This document shows positions 19,185 through 57,605 of a DNA stretch of 64,000 nucleotides, piece after piece. The DNA comes from Harriotta raleighana (Eukaryota), in the NCBI GenBank assembly GCA_050575255.1, contig JBNZDD010013683.1, forward strand, positions 897,282 through 961,281, in the 5' to 3' direction. The position numbers and the translations under genes were made by a program. How positions within the stretch are numbered: the stretch's first letter is position 1; each line of letters opens with the position of its first letter. A model generated the notes under the pieces. The model worked only from the letters and a program-made list of their open reading frames with translations. It was not told the DNA's origin and ran no database searches.

Positions 19185-19551
19185 TTCACCCAGAAAATAT
19201 ACAATCAATCCACTTTACAATATATTCTGTGGCATGCTTTCAGATGTCTCAAGGATGTGATAAGGTACTATAGAAACCTTGAGCAAGTTTCCTTACTCCA
19301 GACACCTAATAATAATCTGTCCAAAAAAACCCACAATAATAAAATTGGTCATTTCAATCCACGGCTGTTTGTGGGCCACTGCTGTGCACAATAGGCTGCC
19401 GTGTTTCGCCCACAAATTTACAGTCAATTCACTTTACAGTATATTCTGTGAAGCACTTTGAGACGTCTAGAAGACATGGAAAGCACTATATCAAATGCAA
19501 GGATTATTATATTATCATTATATCAAATGCAAGGATTATTATTATTATTAT
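19185..19551 (+). mobile_element. SINE cluster: a tail fragment plus a 5'-truncated copy with duplicated tail
   Basis: 'gaaaccttgagcaagtttccttactcc...ctgtttgtgggccactgctgtgcacaataggctgccg...' and 'tatatcaaatgcaaggattattat' present twice. Confidence 0.85.
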
Positions 19552-23605: not shown

Positions 23606-23968
23606 TATTATTATTATTAAATTATCATTAATGTTTCAATATTTGGGAAATGGTTGGGCAGGACACCAGGAGAAATACAGGTGCAGATGTAGCAGTTTGC
23701 CATCAATGTGGCAGCCAGGTTGCATATAGCAATGTACCACAAAACAGTAGTGAATTGAATGTCAACTTCATCTGGAGGATTATCACTATTATTATTATTA
23801 AATTATCATTAATGTTTCAATATTTGGGAAATGGTTGGGCAGGACACCAGGAGAAATACAGGTGCAGATGTAGCAGTTTGCCATCAATGTGGCAGCCAGG
23901 TTGCATATAGCAATGTACCACAAAACAGTAGTGAATTGAATGTCAACTTCATCTGGAGGATTATCACT
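23606..23968. repeat. Exact 181-bp tandem duplication
   Basis: 23606-23786 repeats as 23787-23967. This explains the identical ORF starts at 23650 and 23831. Confidence 0.9.
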
Positions 23969-24183
23969 CATGATAATACTGAATATGTATTATTAATGCA
24001 ATCACAATTTTCTTCTTTTTTTAAAAAAATCACCTACCCCTAAAGCAAGATGTGTGTGTCACAATCCCACTCTTNGTCATGATAATACTGAATATGTATT
24101 ATTAATGCAATCACAATTTTCTTTTTTTTTTTAAAAATCACCTACCCCTAAAGCAAGATGTGTGTGTCACAATCCCACTCTTT
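23968..24183. repeat. ~107-bp duplication around n at 24075 (probable assembly artefact)
   Basis: 'tcatgataatactgaat...aatcccactctt' occurs twice; the copies differ only in the T/A homopolymer tract. Confidence 0.8.
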
Positions 24184-26188: not shown

Positions 26189-26499
26189 TAATAATAATAA
26201 TAATCCTTGCATTTGATATAGTGCTTTTCACGCCTTCTAGATGTCTCAAAGCGCTTCACAGAATATACTGTGAAGTGACTTAACTGTATAATTGTGGACA
26301 AAATGCGGCAGCCAATTGCGCTTAGCAGCATCCAACAAACAGTCATGGATTGAAGTGACCAATTTATTATTGTTTTTTCAAGAGATTATTATTAAGCGTG
26401 TGGAGTAAGGAAATTGCCCAAGGTTTCGCCCTGCCTGGAATTGACCCCAGGTCTCTCGCTTTCAAGGTGAGTGCTCTAACCACTGAGCTACAGGCCTCC
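26189..26499 (-). mobile_element. Full-length tRNA-derived SINE with Deu-type central domain and L2-like tail
   Basis: Reverse complement: 'ggaggcctgtagctcagtggttagagcactcacc...ggtcaattccaggcagggcga' (A and B boxes), then 'gcgcaattggctgccgc', then 'aagcgctttgagacatc...caaatgcaaggattattatt'. Confidence 0.9.
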
Positions 26500-26709
26500 A
26501 TGATCTCAGGTGGTATGTATGCCTCTGAAAGCTTGGTAACATTTCAAGTTTTGTACAATTGTATCCATTTTAGTGACTCCGAGATACCTATTTACCAATT
26601 TCATTATTTCTCATCAGAAACTCGGATCTGCAGTTAAACTCATTTAAATCATAAAGGTGACATTCAGTTTCTTTTTAAGTTCCAACTTTGAAAATAAACA
26701 AAATATCCA

Positions 26710-27074
26710 TAAGAGGAGTCAAAAACAGACTCATTGATGAAAATCTTACTGTACAGAGTGCGTACATCAATCACATTTCTTTTACCTGATTACTGTCTGT
26801 CCAGGACTGGTGCTGTAGTTCAAAATTTCACCCACAAAATACAGTCAATCATATATTCAGTTCAGTGCTTTGGGATGTCTCAATGNAGATTAAACCCTTA
26901 AGAGGAGTCAAAAACAGACTCATTGATGAAAATCTTACTGTACAGAGTGCGTACATCAATCACATTTCTTTTACCTGATTACTGTCTGTCCAGGACTGGT
27001 GCTGTAGTTCAAAATTTCACCCACAAAATACAGTCAATCATATATTCAGTTCAGTGCTTTGGGATGTCTCAATG
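26710..27074. repeat. 176-bp duplication around n at 26886 (probable assembly artefact)
   Basis: 26710-26885 repeats at 26899-27074. Confidence 0.85.
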
Positions 27075-33131: not shown

Positions 33132-35054
33132 TTAGATCTGTGTCTCTTGCACATTGTCCTTAGAGTTCACTCGCATCAATAATGGTTCATGCACAGAGCT
33201 GTGTATTGAGTTTATCGTGTTTACTGTGGTGGTATGGTTGAACGGTGCTTTGTACGAGTTATAATGGTTCATATCCTCGTGCTCTATGGCGGGCATCGTC
33301 AGGTGACTCTCTACGGCAGTGCCTCGCGCGATCTCTTCGTCCACATTGATGATCTCGATGGTCCTGATGGGAGCGTGGTGATTCTGGTGGTGGTGTTGCT
33401 TGCGCATTTTGTAAAAAATGATCAACATCACTGCCGCCATCAGTGTGATGGCTACAAAACACCCGATAATGATCTTGGTGGTTTTCATCACCTCATCCAG
33501 GCCGGGCATGACGTTGTCCCCCACGTCGGTGATGGCCACTGTGGCCGTCTTCTCTGTCGTCTTTGTGCTCCGAGGGGTCAGGGAGGTGGTCACAAAGGTG
33601 GTTTCCCAGTCGCTGAAAGGCGTGGGTCTGAACTTGTCCTCGCTCGTGTGTACCTGTATCGACGGCTCCATGGACTCCACCGTGACCGTGGTGAAATACG
33701 TGAAGGTGCTGTTCTCCGTCGCCGTCACGTTGAGCGTGGCTGAAGCCGTGGTGTTCCCTGCAGAGTTACTCACCATACATGTGTACAGCCCCGTGTCCTG
33801 GACCGTCACATTAGTAAAATTTAATGTGCCGTCGTTAAGCACTGAGATCCGCACTTTGTAGGCTCCGTGGGTCATTATGGTGCCATTCGGGGTAATCCAA
33901 CTCACTGAGGTCATGGAGGTCGACGCCCGGCATTTCAGCTCTGCAGCCATCCCTTCGGTCAGATTGAGGTCCGTAGGAGCCTCGACGATAACTGGCGCGT
34001 AGCAGTTGAACTTATTCTGGTCCAGTTCCCCGATGTAGCTGCCCTTCAAATTAGGCGGCGTGTGGCAGCGAGCACAACAGGTTGTGTTGGAGGGCACTAT
34101 CTCCTTCAGCCACCAGCTGAGCCACAGAATATCACAGTTGCAACTCCACGGATTGTGATGCAGGTGGACTCGCTCGAGGTGGTGGAGGGGAGTGAAGAGG
34201 TCGTGAGGCAGCAGAGTTAGGTTATTGTGTGCCAAGTTCAACTCGATTAGGGACTGGAGGTCGTCGAAGGCGTTCCTCTCGATCACCTGAATCTGAGCGT
34301 GCATCATCCACAGTTTCTGCAGGTTCGTCAGGCCCTGGAAGGAGCCCGGCCGGATCTGGGAGAGACGGTTTCCCGACAGCTCCAGCTCCTCCAGCTTCAG
34401 CAGAGTCATGAGGCTTGGGATGTCGCGCAGATTGCACATTCCAAGGTTCAGATACCTCAAGTTGAAAAGGCTATCAAAGGCTCTGTCCGAGATGTACTCC
34501 AGCCTTTTCAGTTCGCCTAAATCTAATCTTCTAAGCGAAGGGACTCGACTGAAAGCGTACGAGGGTATGCTCTCAATTGGATTATTCCGCAACCACAGCT
34601 CTTTCAGTTTCGATAGGTATTCAAAAGCTCCACTGGGGATGGTGGAAAGGCGGTTGTCAAACAGCTCCAGGGTGTTGAGGTTTGTCAGGCCGTTGAAGGC
34701 CCCGACCTCAATCTGTCGGATGTGGTTCTTACTTAACTGCAAAATCTCCAGGTGCCTTAAATGCTTAAAGCTGTCGGATTTGATGACCTGGATCCCGTTT
34801 TCTTGCAGGTTCAGGTAGCGTGTGTTGATGGAGATGCTATCTGGCACCTCTCGGAGATTACGTCGCGTACAGATCACTTTGCTGAACTGGTTACTACAGG
34901 AGCACACAGACGGGCAGGTCTGAGCTCTGACCAGACCAGCCACCACCAGCAATTGAAGAGCCAACAGCAGCACAAATAAGGGGTCGAGTATGGCCCTGTT
35001 AAACTTTGGACCTATCATCATCTGCTGTGGATGCAATGTCATCTTGTTCAACAT
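33132..35054 (-). CDS. LRRC4C: Leucine-rich repeat-containing protein 4C (netrin-G ligand-1), single coding exon, 640 aa
   Basis: N-terminus [11 protein letters not shown], signal peptide, LRRNT (QTCPSVCSC), LRR array, LRRCT (NPWSCNC), Ig domain, Thr-rich stalk, TM helix ([20 protein letters not shown]) and PDZ-binding C-terminus ETQI. It closely matches the vertebrate LRRC4C sequence as I recall it. Confidence 0.98.
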
Positions 35055-43220: not shown

Positions 43221-44305
43221 TTTGAATCTCTTATTTCCCTGGCTCCAGGTAAGATAAGAGTTGCCTTAAGCAAGGGGACGCAATAATAATAATCATAATC
43301 CTTGCATTTTGATGGAGCCAGAAGGATGTCCCGAAGCGCTTCATGGGATACACTGTAAATTGTAGCGACTGAAGGTGAGCATTGGAGAGTTACTTTGTGC
43401 TGCAGGGGGTAGGGGAGCTGGGGAGGGGAAGATGCAATTTCTAAAGTGGTAAATTTCTTAAGTTGATGTGAGAGAAAACTGGTTCATCAGGATCCGAGTG
43501 AGAGGGATAGATTAACAGTTTCCATTCTGCAAGTGGCCTTCTAGGAGATCCGACTGCTTCCTACCTGAGCTGGTCTGACACAGAATGGCTGTGAATGGAA
43601 GCTCCATGATCCTGCACAGACGTCAATGGTAAATCAGAGGGCTGTGTGCCCAGACTGCTCCTGCAGAGCACCCAGCTGCCAGGATAACTATACAATGGCA
43701 CCCCGTGCTAAAGGGGTGGTTAGGTGAACAATCGCATCCGGCTTGCGTATGAATGCAACACAAATGGAGGAGACTTCAAATTCTCCCTCCCTCGCTCACC
43801 TCTGTGCGGATTCTTGGGCTCTACCCGATGCCTTGCCTCCAAATCACTGAGATTCTGTCTCTGCCATTAAGAACCACTAGGCGATGCACTGTGTCGGGAG
43901 TTCTAAGGAAAGTGCCGTTCTGCAGTCTCATCAACGGCTTGGGAGATTTATTGGATCTATTGTCGCACCAGAAATGTTTTCAAAACTTGCTCTAAATACC
44001 AGACAGCTACAATATTATTCATGTTGATCGGCAATGTTGAATTTCCTCAATCATTCCATGTCATGCAAAAGACAAATTTACTTGCCTTTTGCTGGCATTC
44101 ATCACAGTGCGTGCTGGCACATGATAGACACAGAATGCTTGTGAAAAGGATCTGACTGCCCCATGTGGCAGCTTTGGCACAGGGTCATTTCATTCGCTGT
44201 GAAAGAGGGTTTGCACCAGGTCAAAGCCATAGGATTCCAACTTCAAAACTCCTCAACCAAATACTGTAACCGAATCTAATACAGTATGCGGTCATTTCAA
44301 TGCAT

Positions 44306-44715
44306 GGAGTACTGTAGCTCAGTGGTTGGAGCACTTGCCTTACAAGCTTGAGACTGTGTCCGAATCCAGGCAGGTCAGGGCGAAACCTTGGGTAGATTTC
44401 CTCACTTCACAAGCCTAAGAATAATCCCTCCAAAAAGAACACAATAATACAATTGGTCATTTCAATCCACAACTATTCATTGGACACTGCTTTGCGCAAT
44501 CGGCTGCCACATTTTGCCTGCAAGTATACAGTCAATTCACAGTACAGTATATTCTGTGAAGCGCTTTGAGACATCTAGAAGATGTGAAAAGCGCTACAGT
44601 ATATCCAATGCAAGGATTATTATATTATATGTCCTGTGAAGTATTTTGAGACATCTCAACAACATGATAAGGTTCTATATCAAATGCAAGGATTATTATA
44701 TTTATATTATATTAC
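44306..44715 (+). mobile_element. Full-length tRNA-derived SINE plus a second tandem tail
   Basis: Head 'ggagtactgtagctcagtggttggagcacttgcc', Deu-type core, tail ending ~44627, second tail ~44632-44715. Confidence 0.9.
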
Positions 44716-47107: not shown

Positions 47108-47332
47108 CTTTACAGTGGTGGTGTTTGACAACTTCTGTCCATAATAATAATCCTTGCATTTGATACAGCGCTTTTCACATCTTCTAGTNACTTTACAGTG
47201 GTGGTGTTTGACAACTTCTGTCCATAATAATCCTTGCATTTGATACAGCGCTTTTCACATCTTCTAGTCTCAAAGCACTTCACAGAATATACTGCAAAGT
47301 GAACTGACTGTAACATTTCTGGGTGAAACATG
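47108..47332 (-). mobile_element. SINE tail with an ~80-bp duplication around n at 47189
   Basis: 47108-47188 repeats at 47191-47268 with one fewer ATA unit. The sequence is the reverse complement of the SINE tail. Confidence 0.8.
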
Positions 47333-49029: not shown

Positions 49030-49460
49030 ACAACAAACAACAAAATTACATTTGAATAGCTCGTTTCAGGTTGGGAGGACATCCCAAGGAACTGGACAGT
49101 CAATGTTTCAGACCTAAGATGGGGTCGGTATTGGGGAGGGTGGAGGGAAAGGAGGGGATTTGGGGTGACCGACTGGACCGTCAAAGAGGAGAGTCTTGAG
49201 GCAGAACTTGAAGGAGGCTAGGGAGGGTACGAAATGGAGGGACTGCACGATGGAATTCTAGAGATTGTGGGCAGAGTGGTTGAAAGTTTGCCCCCCAATG
49301 GTGAGGTGGGTGGTTCAGAGGACGTGGAGCAGGCCGGAGTCTGCTGAGCAGAGAGTGCGGGCAGGTTGGTAGGTGGTTAGTAGGTCGCAAAGTAGGGTGG
49401 GGCAAGGCCATGGAGGGCTTTGAAGGTGTGGACCAGGTCCTTGAATTGAATCCTCTGGGT
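49030..49460 (-). mobile_element. L2 LINE 3' end (ORF2 C-terminus, 3' UTR and tail)
   Basis: Reverse complement encodes FKALHGLAPPY, a typical L2 ORF2 C-terminal motif, and ends 'aatgtaattttgttgtttgttg'. Confidence 0.8.
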
Positions 49461-49633: not shown

Positions 49634-50856
49634 TGTGAATCAGTAGATGTAGTCTATTTGGACTTCCAGAAGACATTTGATAAGGTGCCACATAAAAGGT
49701 TGATTCAAAAGATAGGGCCTTACAGAATTGGGGGAACATATTAACATGGATTAGGGAATGTTTAACGGGTTGGAATCAAAGAGTAGGGATAAACGGGTCC
49801 TTCTCAGATTGGCGGGATGTAACTAGTGGAGTGCCACAAAGATTGGGTCTCAGCTATTTACCATCTACATCAACGATCTAGATAAGGACATCGAGCTTAA
49901 TATATCTAAATTTGCTGATGATACGAAACTAGGAGGAAGCGTTAATACCAAGGATGACATTAAAAAAATGCAGCGCGATATAGATAGGTAGGTGGCAGAT
50001 GAAGTATAATGTAGGGAAGTGCAAAGTCATCCACCTAGGTCGCAAAAACATTAGAGCAGGTTATTTTTTAGAGAGGGGGAGAGATTGGAAAGTGTTAGCG
50101 TGCAGAGGGACTTACCTTGTACACCAAACACAGAAAGTTAGTATGCAGGTGCAGCAGGCAATTAGGAAGGCTAATGGTATGTTAGCTTTCATTATGAGAG
50201 GGTTAGAATATAAGAGTAGGGAAGTCTTGCTGCAGCTGTATAGACCACACCTGGAATATTGTATGCACTTTTGGTCTCCTTATTTAAGAAAGGATGTACT
50301 TGCCTTGGAGGGAGTGCAGTATAGGTTTACTAGGTTAATACTTGGAATGAGGGGGATGAGTTATGATGATAGGTTGATTAATTTGGGTCTATATTCTCTG
50401 GAATATAGAAGAATTAGAGGGGATCTTATAGAAACCTATAAGATTATTAAGGGGCACGACAAAGTAGATAGTGGGAAATTGTTTCCCCTGGTTGGAGAAT
50501 CTAAAACCAGGGGTCACAGTCTTAAAGTTAGGGGTCAGCCCTTTCACACTGAGTTGAGAAAATCTTCTTCACTCAGAGGGTGGTGGATGTATGAAATTCT
50601 TTACCCCAAAGGGCCGTTTATGCTCAGTCCTTGAACATATTCAAGACTGAGTTAGATAGATTTCTCATTTATAAAGGGATTTCTCATTTCCCCTATTCTT
50701 ATACTCTAACCCTTTCATAATGAAAGGATTTATATGGGGATAAGGCAGGGTAGCTGGAGTTAGAGCAGAATATCAGCCATGATTGAATGGTGGGGCCGAT
50801 GGGCCAAATGGCCTACCCCTGCTCCTATTTCTTATGTTCTTACGTTCTTATGTTCT
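49634..50856 (+). mobile_element. CR1 LINE, 5'-truncated, with a degenerate reverse transcriptase
   Basis: Motifs LDFQKTFDKVPH, ISKFADDTKLGG, RPHLEYC and RRIRGDLIETYKI, with frameshifts. Tail 'ttcttatgttcttacgttcttatgttct'. Candidate TSD TAAGCG. Confidence 0.93.
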
Positions 50857-53199: not shown

Positions 53200-53715
53200 G
53201 CAAAGAACTTCACAGAATTTAATGCGAAGGGCAGTAACTGTTTTTTTTTGTAGGCAAGTCACGTTTTCACAAGGCAATGTCCCATGAATAGCCATGAAAT
53301 GAGAGACAAATTTGATTCGGGGCAATGTAAGCCTGGTCAATGGGCAAAACTCCCTTCTCTTTGAGTAGTGCCTTTGGATCTGTAAAAGGCCACCTGAACA
53401 GGCAGATGGGTCCTTAAGAACATAAGAAATAGGAGCAGCAGTAGGCCATTCGTCCCATCGAGCCTGCCCCGCCATTCAATCATGGCTGATATTCTACTCT
53501 TACTCCAGCTACCTGCCTTATCCCCATACCCTTTAATCCCTTTATAAATGAGAAATCTATCTAACTCAGTCTTGAATATGTTCATGTCCTTGATTTAACG
53601 CCTCATTCAAATGATGGGAGCTGCAGCACTCCCTCAGCACTGCACTGGAGTATCAGCCTAGACTATGATTTCAATATAATGTACTGATGTGGGGCTTGAA
53701 CCTGCAAGCCAGCCT
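53200..53715 (-). mobile_element. Old long Deu-type SINE interrupted by a CR1 3' fragment
   Basis: 'cacctgaacaggcagatgggtcctt' resumes as 'gtccttgatttaacgcctcattc...cagcactccctcagcactgcactgg...ggggcttgaacc'. Confidence 0.7.
53416..53585 (-). mobile_element. CR1 3' UTR fragment, 170 bp
   Basis: Highly similar to the reverse complement of 50633-50841. Flanked by a GTCCTT duplication. Confidence 0.9.
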
Positions 53716-56115: not shown

Positions 56116-56742
56116 ATTTTTTATTATTTCAATAAAAGTGAGCTTTTATACACTTCACAGACCACAACGCCTTTAAACGCAAGTGTAAGACAGAGAGCTT
56201 GATACTCAGTTCAAGAATGCTCAGACTCATCTTGCTGGGCACCAGATATCTTCCTCTGCTTTGACCTACAGTGGGTCTGAACCTCAATTTTGCAGCAGCA
56301 CAAATGTGACAGCAACATCTCATGCAACCGTGTGCCCATTCTGAGTGATATATCAAAGGCACTAAAGAAGTGTAATTTTGTTGTTGTTATCACCAAGTTC
56401 ATGCCAAGTTGTGTTTAACGCGTAAGATTGTGCAAATGACCCACACTCACTAGGCAGAAATAATTGCGTTTTCACATAGCCAGGCCCTTGGAATCAGGAG
56501 ACACAAGAGATGTGGTTTTAGTGCAGGGAATTCAAACCACGCCCAGATCTGAAAGATTGCTAACCAATTCTGCTACCCAGTCACTTTCAGTAAGAAAGCT
56601 GGGGTAGGGATAGGGAGGGTTAACACAGAAACAAAGGTCTATTGTTAATAAGCAGCCCAGTATTTGTATTTTACTTTATTTTGAAATTGAAAGGGGCTTT
56701 CTTCTGACCACAATAATTCAGCAAATCTCTTAGGTACCCAGT

Positions 56743-56820
56743 GAGGACGTCCTAAGGTGCTGGACAGTTAGAGGTCAGCACCCAAGCAAGGAGGACAGGG
56801 GGAGGGAGGTAGGGGGCAAT
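56743..56820 (-). mobile_element. L2 3' UTR segment fused downstream of the U6 copy
   Basis: Reverse complement 'ttgcttgggtgctgacctctaactgtccagcaccttaggacgtcctc' aligns with the L2 3' UTR at ~14603-14649. Confidence 0.75.
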
Positions 56821-56825
56821 AATAA

Positions 56826-56918
56826 CTTCACAAATTTGTATGTCATCCTTGCACAGGGGCCATGCTAATCTTCGCTGTAGCTTTTCAATTTTAATATATG
56901 TGCCGCCAAAGAGAGTAC
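56826..56918 (-). pseudogene. RNU6: U6 snRNA retropseudogene (U6 nt 1-93)
   Basis: Reverse complement GTACTCTCTTTGGCGGCACATATATTAAAATTGAAAAGCTACAGCGAAGATTAGCATGGCCCCTGTGCAAGGATGACATACAAATTTGTGAAG aligns without gaps to vertebrate U6, with about 13 mismatches by eye. The ACAGAGA box is mutated and the 3' oligo-U end is missing. Confidence 0.93.
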
Positions 56919-56957
56919 ATAGAGATTATACAGTTATTACACCAGAATTATGTTTCA

Positions 56958-57012
56958 CCAGCAACCTCGGACCTCCTCCCAATGTGAAAGGCACTATACA
57001 AATGCAATTTTG
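56958..57012 (+). mobile_element. L2 terminal tail segment, opposite orientation to the U6-L2 fusion
   Basis: 'ccagcaacctcggacctcctcccaatgtgaaaggcactatacaaatgcaattttg'. Confidence 0.7.
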
Positions 57013-57411
57013 CAGTGTATTGTACTTAAAGATAGAAGCAAAAGCTTAGGAATGGGAGTCCCTTAAACCAACTACAGTACTGTACATTGAAAAGACTTTG
57101 CTTAACCCACCCACTTGCCAATTTGCTTTCATTTCTTATCGGTTCTTCCATTTTTCCTGATGTACATATTTGGATCTACAGAACCCCAGTTTGACATTAC
57201 ATTTTGTACTATTCATCTAGACACAATTACTTTTTTAACATGTCTTTTCCAAGAACGCAGACATTGAGAAACACTCATTTTGCAAAGTAAATGTTATCAT
57301 CCTGAAAGATTCCTTGCTCCCTTGCCCATCAAAGCCCCACTGCCTCATAGTTATGTAACAGTCCTCATCAGGTTGCTTCTCTTTTGGTCCAGGATATCAG
57401 AGTTATAATTT

Positions 57412-57605
57412 TATAATAGTAATCTTCAATGCATTTGATATAACTCTTTATCATGTCTTCGAGACATCTCAAAGCGCTTCACAGAATATACTACAGAATA
57501 TACTGTAATGACTGTGTATTTTGTGGGTGAAACAAGGCAGCCAATTGTGTAGAGCAGTTTCCCGCTAATAGCTGTGGATTGAGTGACCAATTTCCTATTA
57601 TTACT
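57412..57605 (-). mobile_element. SINE 3' half
   Basis: 'gcatttgatat...gagacatctcaaagcgcttcacagaatatact...ggcagccaattg'. Confidence 0.8.

Follow-up and report, generated by a model that had tools for sequence, protein, structure and literature searches.

In a window of 64,000 nucleotides from Harriotta raleighana (the whole stretch of DNA analysed; contig C13683, positions 897282–961281) we find a dead U6 snRNA retrocopy of an ordinary kind; it is likely a U6/L2 chimera, and an L2 end unrelated to it adjoins it. The most satisfactory explanation of the locus, which we consider probable, combines a U6/L2 chimera that arose once by template switching and has since lost its 3′ end with a separately inserted short L2 (piece B). 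The features of the locus are the following:

56739–56743, plus strand: the left CAGTG, composed of flank and the last base of piece A (56743); not a demonstrated target-site duplication (TSD)
56743–56817, minus strand: piece A, a 5′-truncated L2-type 3′ UTR of the GTT-tailed subfamily (nhmmer, subfamily tests)
56818–56825, minus strand: T/A-rich linker of 8 nt, aligned by Rfam as the U6 end with a 6-nt gap
56826–56918, minus strand: U6 snRNA pseudogene, nt 1–93 (Rfam RF00026), without a U6 promoter upstream; dead
56919–56957, no strand: spacer of 39 nt, unique sequence without a repeat match
56958–57024, plus strand: piece B, a short complete L2-type 3′ end of the minority CATTG/TATTG-tailed subfamily (nhmmer, consensus alignment)

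A 640-codon frame (33132–35054, minus) has the locus about 21.7 kb upstream of it, with the U6 copy on the same strand. Among solved structures the best match of the frame is LRRC4C, and it forms a single LRRC4C-like coding exon. Going by the gene structure of LRRC4C, the locus would sit in a 5′ intron of an LRRC4C-like gene.

An earlier note had described U6 nt 1–93 running on the minus strand from 56918 to 56826 and then a short ‘ttattatt’ linker, and both descriptions hold. Rfam RF00026 matches 56918–56818 (minus) with 81.7 bits and an E-value of 3e-19, the 8-nt T/A linker is found at 56825–56818, and the copy is identical at 80 of 93 positions to the intact U6 genes of this genome, the 13 changes over nt 1–93 falling on 7 of 12 CpG sites and 6 of 81 non-CpG sites. 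The intact genes are three in number (L031–L033, G000:C13680:5219900-5283106), lie within 64 kb and have a TATA box, a common upstream element and a T-run. The sequence upstream of the U6 copy shows no resemblance to this gene upstream region (P 0.15–0.25), and the locus, which is without a U6 promoter, is predicted to be inert, with no predicted function. The linker would be what is left of the U6 3′ end after decay and the loss of 6 nt, unless its bases were added without a template; it is unlike the sequence preceding the corresponding point in piece A’s subfamily.

Long copies of the repeat that supplied pieces A and B extend upstream into the end of an ORF that is about 50% identical to teleost endonuclease/reverse transcriptase proteins, and the repeat is the 3′ end of an endonuclease/reverse-transcriptase non-LTR element. 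Since the ORF shares 50–53% identity with all nine of the teleost proteins tried and matches one of 11 CR1-type proteins, at 25%, the repeat is not a CR1. The label L2 is provisional and taken from motifs at the end of ORF2, in a comparison with proteins that carry no L2 label; the reverse transcriptase tree was likewise without labelled references and had two long branches, and the clade name is not drawn from it. Pfam returned 0 families on one L2-type frame (L073). Across 80 evenly picked stretches (791,909 bases) there are 266 L2-type ends, one per 2,977 bases, and 128 of the 174 tails that could be classified among these matches are GTT repeats. A minority tail, CATTG then TATTG, was found in 7 other exact copies, in 22 copies with a looser pattern and in 3 more in a later search, with 0 matches to reversed control patterns. 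One of the 25 rows of the CATTG-tail set (L193) may not be an L2. The assembly searched comprises 1.10 Gb, and the genome-wide searches score best candidates only, so that copy counts are lower bounds. The consensus ends of both subfamilies fold into the same predicted stem-loop, followed by GTT or TATTG repeats; one natural L2-type copy folded no better than shuffles (z −0.59). A recognition role of such 3′ stem-loops is described in the part of Hayashi et al. 2014 (PMC4176376) cited here.

The window holds other repeats. A tRNA-headed SINE whose end resembles the L2-type tail is abundant (26191–26502, with an Rfam tRNA match at 26497–26426; 19273–19518, 44303–44628, 57413–57602 and others). 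Two CR1-like 3′ ends stand inverted to each other at 50632–50842 and 53415–53584, their arms 91–100% complementary over 46–50 nt. Four local tandem duplications of 80–210 nt with 95–99% identity (23606–23998, 23968–24182, 26707–27074 and 47108–47268) are either recent duplications or assembly artefacts.

Pieces A and B were delimited with an nhmmer model of the L2-type end built from ten intact tails. Piece A matches at 56813–56743 (minus; model 45–113 of 153, E 2e-10), which confirms a same-strand L2 3′ UTR segment stopping at 56743. It lacks the last ~40 nt and the tail, and ends in the loop of the 3′ stem-loop predicted from the subfamily consensus fold. No same-strand tail for it was found from 56743 as far as position 49191, where the next full copy lies; a GTT-tailed piece at 56353–56385 (plus), considered as its lost end, is on the wrong strand and 360 nt away. 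Piece B matches at 56957–57015 (plus; model 92–150, E 2e-14), begins at the base of the predicted stem and aligns gap-free to its own subfamily consensus as far as 57024, a length of 67 nt; its tail is assigned from 12 informative bases, with one mismatch. The missing end of piece A had been placed on the opposite strand at 56958–57012: a terminal piece does begin at 56958, but it runs to 57024 and belongs to the other subfamily. The overlap of about 20 nt noted at the breakpoint amounts to 22 nt in element coordinates.

The 5-bp CAGTG TSD by which the unit had been bounded does not survive this delimitation. The right CAGTG (57013–57017) is the first unit of piece B’s CATTG/TATTG tail with one T>G change, and the left copy shares base 56743 with piece A. 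Because the right copy thus lies inside the piece B tail, which runs to 57024, there is no TSD around the unit, and no other duplication of at least 5 nt was found at the corrected ends. Exact 5-mer matches arise by chance at 1% of 3000 random sites with a slack of 1, at 5% with a slack of 3 and at 13% with a slack of 5. Around U6 and piece A together, any TSD would have gone with piece A’s own 3′ end; none was found at the present ends.

Next we compared the two pieces with other copies of the repeat. They come from different L2-type subfamilies: the copies chosen by piece A’s upstream motif only (5 + 20, not counting the focal locus) have a tail of GTT repeats in 25 of 25 cases, and piece A’s motif occurs in 0 of 13 long copies with a CATTG-type tail. 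At model column 129 the A-motif copies carry piece B’s base in 0/25 cases (C 21, G 2, T 1, gap 1), and the copies chosen by piece B’s tail only, where long enough (13 of 22), read AAT (11), AGT (1) or ATT (1) at the place where piece A has GAC. The profile score of piece A favours the GTT group over piece B’s subfamily by +16.9 bits (+12.0 without the defining column); in a leave-one-out test the B-subfamily copies do not exceed +0.2 (+6.2 without that column), and 29 of 34 GTT-group copies lie above zero on the same score. Own-consensus scores are partly circular, the sets having been picked by the A and B motifs, and the argument rests on the cross tests; the copies compared are old. The overlap between the pieces says nothing about a common template, since its 5 differences over 22 sites are no better than those of random copy pairs (mean 6.4, P(≤5)=0.37). 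Ages are equally uninformative: non-CpG changes (U6 6/81, piece A 10/66, piece B 5/59) make the three parts indistinguishable in age, and alike ages suit one event as well as three.

These results bear on the model of the earlier note, in which twin priming of one L2 RNA, with capture of U6, produced the locus together with a 5-bp TSD. The head-to-head orientation and the 22-nt overlap do match the geometry of twin priming, the ages are alike, and one old copy (L020) combines an A-like upstream part with a partly B-like tail, though it was picked by likeness to the whole query. However, there are 39 extra nucleotides at the joint, which the model leaves unexplained; twin priming requires both arms to come from one RNA and has TSDs of 10–20 bp, whereas here the arms are of two subfamilies, the very outcome that the note had named as speaking against its model, their overlap is no more alike than that of random copies, and the supposed TSD is tail sequence. 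Moreover, among the 266 L2-type matches, 9 lack the 3′ end (ending by position 125), and 0 of these 9 have an adjoining complementary inverted partner. A single L2-driven twin-priming event, with one RNA giving both arms, is thus very improbable.

The background frequencies of such arrangements show which parts of the geometry call for explanation. Copies starting in piece B’s start zone number 118 of 266 (54 of them within 5 positions), so that a 20-nt overlap with any piece broken near its end is to be expected, and a 67-nt L2 end like piece B belongs to the commonest size class. Copies that end as early as piece A are 6 of 266, one of them at the same position 113. For one of the 9 copies lacking the 3′ end, a complete copy on the opposite strand lies no more than 1.5 kb away. 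The close pairs of L2 ends (within 200 nt) number 21; 13 of them are tandem, the commonest arrangement, and 3 are head-to-head. Of 27,974 random points, 54 (0.19%; about 3% over 16 U6 pseudogene matches) have the 5′ end of a same-strand L2 no farther than 10 nt away, and 195 (0.7%) have a head-on L2 end at up to 40 nt.

At the locus, U6 nt 1–93, the 8-nt linker and piece A place U6 directly 5′ of a 5′-truncated LINE in the same orientation, as in the U6/LINE chimeric retrocopies of group IV of Doucet et al.; the LINE 3′ end and tail are not intact, piece A stopping at model 113 of 153. Since same-strand adjacency of this kind arises by chance at 0.19%, and since U6-LINE fusions do occur in this genome (three U6-CR1 candidates among 16), U6 and piece A are likely a U6/L2 chimera whose parts arrived together. 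Piece B, whose subfamily and size are as described above, was likely inserted separately. Under this explanation the L2 reverse transcriptase would have begun with the tail of its own RNA, halted within the C-rich 3′ UTR, switched to U6 near the U6 3′ end and copied to nt 1; a later deletion would have taken away the final ~40 nt together with the GTT tail and any TSD; and the 67-nt CATTG-subfamily L2 end would have inserted in the opposite direction, 39 nt upstream of U6, either before or after the chimera. Several observations count against it. Two coincidences must meet at one U6 copy, a 3′-end loss (6/266) and a head-on L2 within 40 nt (0.7%); piece A ends in the predicted loop and piece B starts at the stem base, where internal priming would be easiest; the three parts are alike in age; no surviving TSD ties U6 to piece A; and the U6 3′ end is complete only if the linker is its decayed end.

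The spacer at 56919–56957, 39 nt long as earlier described, is most likely ordinary flank between two insertions; neither it nor its near flanks have a repeat match in a 1.18 Mb genome sample. Two other origins were considered for it and rejected. As a remnant of a U6 promoter, its best local match is 12/15 near the TATA box (P 0.19 against random genome, 0.15 against shuffles), and anchoring at +1 gives P 0.18–0.25, and flanks farther out give P 0.73 (upstream) and 0.81 (downstream). Taken to extend piece B upstream by 16 nt, which two copies (L019, L027) hint at, it conflicts with piece B’s own subfamily.

The lack of a TSD binding U6 to piece A is also what would be seen if a 3′-truncated or decayed U6 retrocopy had stood alone and pieces A and B had landed beside it independently, in three separate insertions. 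L2 ends are dense (1 per 3 kb), LINE-free U6 copies are common among the 16, and in one U6 pseudogene (L048) an L2 end seems to have been inserted. We nevertheless regard three insertions as unlikely, given the chance of 0.19% per copy for same-strand adjacency within 10 nt and a head-to-tail order that is exactly that of known U6/LINE chimeras.

The positions at which the pieces break have a different significance if the locus arose in one event from three templates, the first nick priming a B-subfamily L2 RNA and the second priming an A-subfamily RNA in its loop, then U6, with the 39 nt as filler. Such an event would account for the twin-priming geometry, with the inverted piece beside the left flank and the U6 5′ end at the inner joint, for the end of piece A in the predicted loop and for the alike ages; moreover, Doucet et al. 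2015 (PMC4476161, in the section cited) propose two-RNA twin priming to explain inverted snRNA/L1 copies, and according to Yamaguchi et al. 2014 (PMC4245944, likewise) ZfL2-2 often has additional bases at its 5′ junction. It is nonetheless distinctly unlikely: no TSD is present at the true ends, three RNAs and 39 nt of filler are required, none of the 9 of 266 copies that lack the 3′ end has an adjoining complementary inverted partner, and the portion of PMC4245944 cited reports no inversions with ZfL2-1.

The orientation of the parts could also be secondary. U6, piece A and piece B may first have been collinear, B having been inserted into or template-switched onto A, with a later micro-inversion of ~56745–56954. 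Tandem pairs are the commonest close arrangement (13/21), and a 4-nt inverted repeat lies at the breakpoints (56741–56744 and 56955–56958); however, such a repeat is near chance, the breakpoint would have to hit the A/B joint exactly and an extra step is needed, all of which makes this course of events improbable.

Piece B aside, the putative chimera was also compared with the rest of the genome. A search of the assembly with the junction (56790–56860) gave two candidates, the locus itself and a U6-only match, and among the 19 Rfam U6 matches examined (3 genes, 16 others) this L2 piece stands behind the focal copy only. Since the junction is unique, the locus is a one-off and there is no U6-headed SINE family. 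Membership in such a family, which the earlier note had entertained, is extremely improbable: the locus has the head-plus-L2-tail layout and nothing else of a SINE, its junction is single in the assembly and the 18 other U6 matches are without this L2 piece, while very decayed copies could escape a best-candidate search.

Several of the other U6 copies are of interest in their own right. The best U6-CR1 chimera candidate (L041/L169, G000:C13667:3253401-3253500, minus) has U6 nt 8–94 joined directly to a CR1-like 3′ end of ~185 nt, labelled CR1 by translation likeness only, and is bounded by a 9-nt duplication with one mismatch; its U6 part stops at nt 94, one base from the focal copy’s 93. In a second (L034/L166, G000:C13597:818948-819049, plus), U6 ~13–106 with its T-run is joined to 1.63 kb of CR1 ORF2 reaching the 3′ end, in a frame ~50% identical to bird and turtle proteins and 80–86% identical to Callorhinchus milii proteins; a TSD was sought there and none was found. 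A third (L035/L167, G000:C13709:3702668-3702777, minus) joins U6 12–106, with its T-run, to a long CR1-like copy that starts in the endonuclease region and is interrupted by an assembly gap and nested insertions; a clear TSD was not found. Two U6 fragments end at nt 73–74 and are followed by telomere-like repeats (L043/L168, G000:C13708:347368-347479, in which U6 nt 20–74 lies inside a collinear CR1-like ORF2, and L049, G000:C13729:9439241-9439349); these could be break-repair captures. At G000:C13720:1230186-1231005 (L038/L040) two U6 copies (nt 9–91/92) face each other ~600 nt apart, with ~30 nt of upstream flank and three base changes in common. The U6 pseudogene with an L2 end mentioned above (L048, G000:C13610:361303-361376) seemingly received this short L2-type end near nt 40. 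Another (L046, G000:C13652:2806120-2806212) has the focal copy’s nt 3 change and similar T/A-rich sequence after nt 97, with unrelated flanks, by chance or from a lost U6 variant.

The earlier note had held U6 chimeras to be known mainly for mammalian L1, a statement that is out of date. In the sections cited, Doucet et al. 2015 (PMC4476161) describe 40 platypus U6 chimeras with L2 or Mon-1, Anolis U6 chimeras with L1, L2, RTE and AnolisSINE2, and one unresolved, gapped U6-CR1 copy in turkey; TSDs of 1–9 bp accompany 72.5% of the platypus cases, and the U6 3′ end is usually complete in template-switch chimeras. Like the U6-L2 chimeras of platypus and Anolis in those sections, the locus is a single copy with U6 head-to-tail before a short 5′-truncated L2, a stringent-type LINE. 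Unlike them, it keeps the U6 5′ end, has a missing or damaged U6 3′ end, has lost the L2 tail and has no TSD, and its host is a cartilaginous fish, a group outside the section on platypus and Anolis chimeras. Inverted snRNA/L1 chimeras (U5, U1, U2 and one U6), ascribed in the same source to twin priming, resemble the locus in having a 3′-truncated snRNA opposite a LINE 3′ end; as described there, a TSD encloses them and the snRNA end borders the flank, whereas at the locus the TSD is lacking and a second L2 piece and a spacer of 39 nt intervene. In cultured cells, according to the part of Yamaguchi et al. 2014 (PMC4245944) cited, ZfL2-1 gives ~5-bp TSDs and no 5′ inversions, and ZfL2-2 often has extra 5′ bases. 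Crocodilian SINEU, in the cited part of Kojima 2015 (PMC4494074), shares with the locus an snRNA-derived 5′ part, but has U1/U2 heads and hundreds to thousands of copies, as opposed to a single-copy U6. The literature cited also includes Law and Burns 2025 (PMC11838501). Our search, with subscription journals largely outside it, found no paper that treats L2 twin priming, or U6/LINE chimeras of cartilaginous fishes; the tables of Doucet et al. could hold further non-mammalian cases.

Where L2 ends are as dense as one per 3 kb, a short TSD or a ‘missing end’ needs checking against subfamily tails. A three-template origin, if true, would be genomic evidence of trans twin priming by an L2-clade enzyme, absent in ZfL2-1 cell assays, and that reading alone would interest specialists. 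Better supported is a side result, the capture of U6 by CR1 in this genome; whether CR1 does so had been left unsettled by the single gapped turkey copy in the cited sections of Doucet et al. The locus itself, as most likely read, would extend the class of U6/LINE chimeras to the L2 of a chimaera-like cartilaginous fish.
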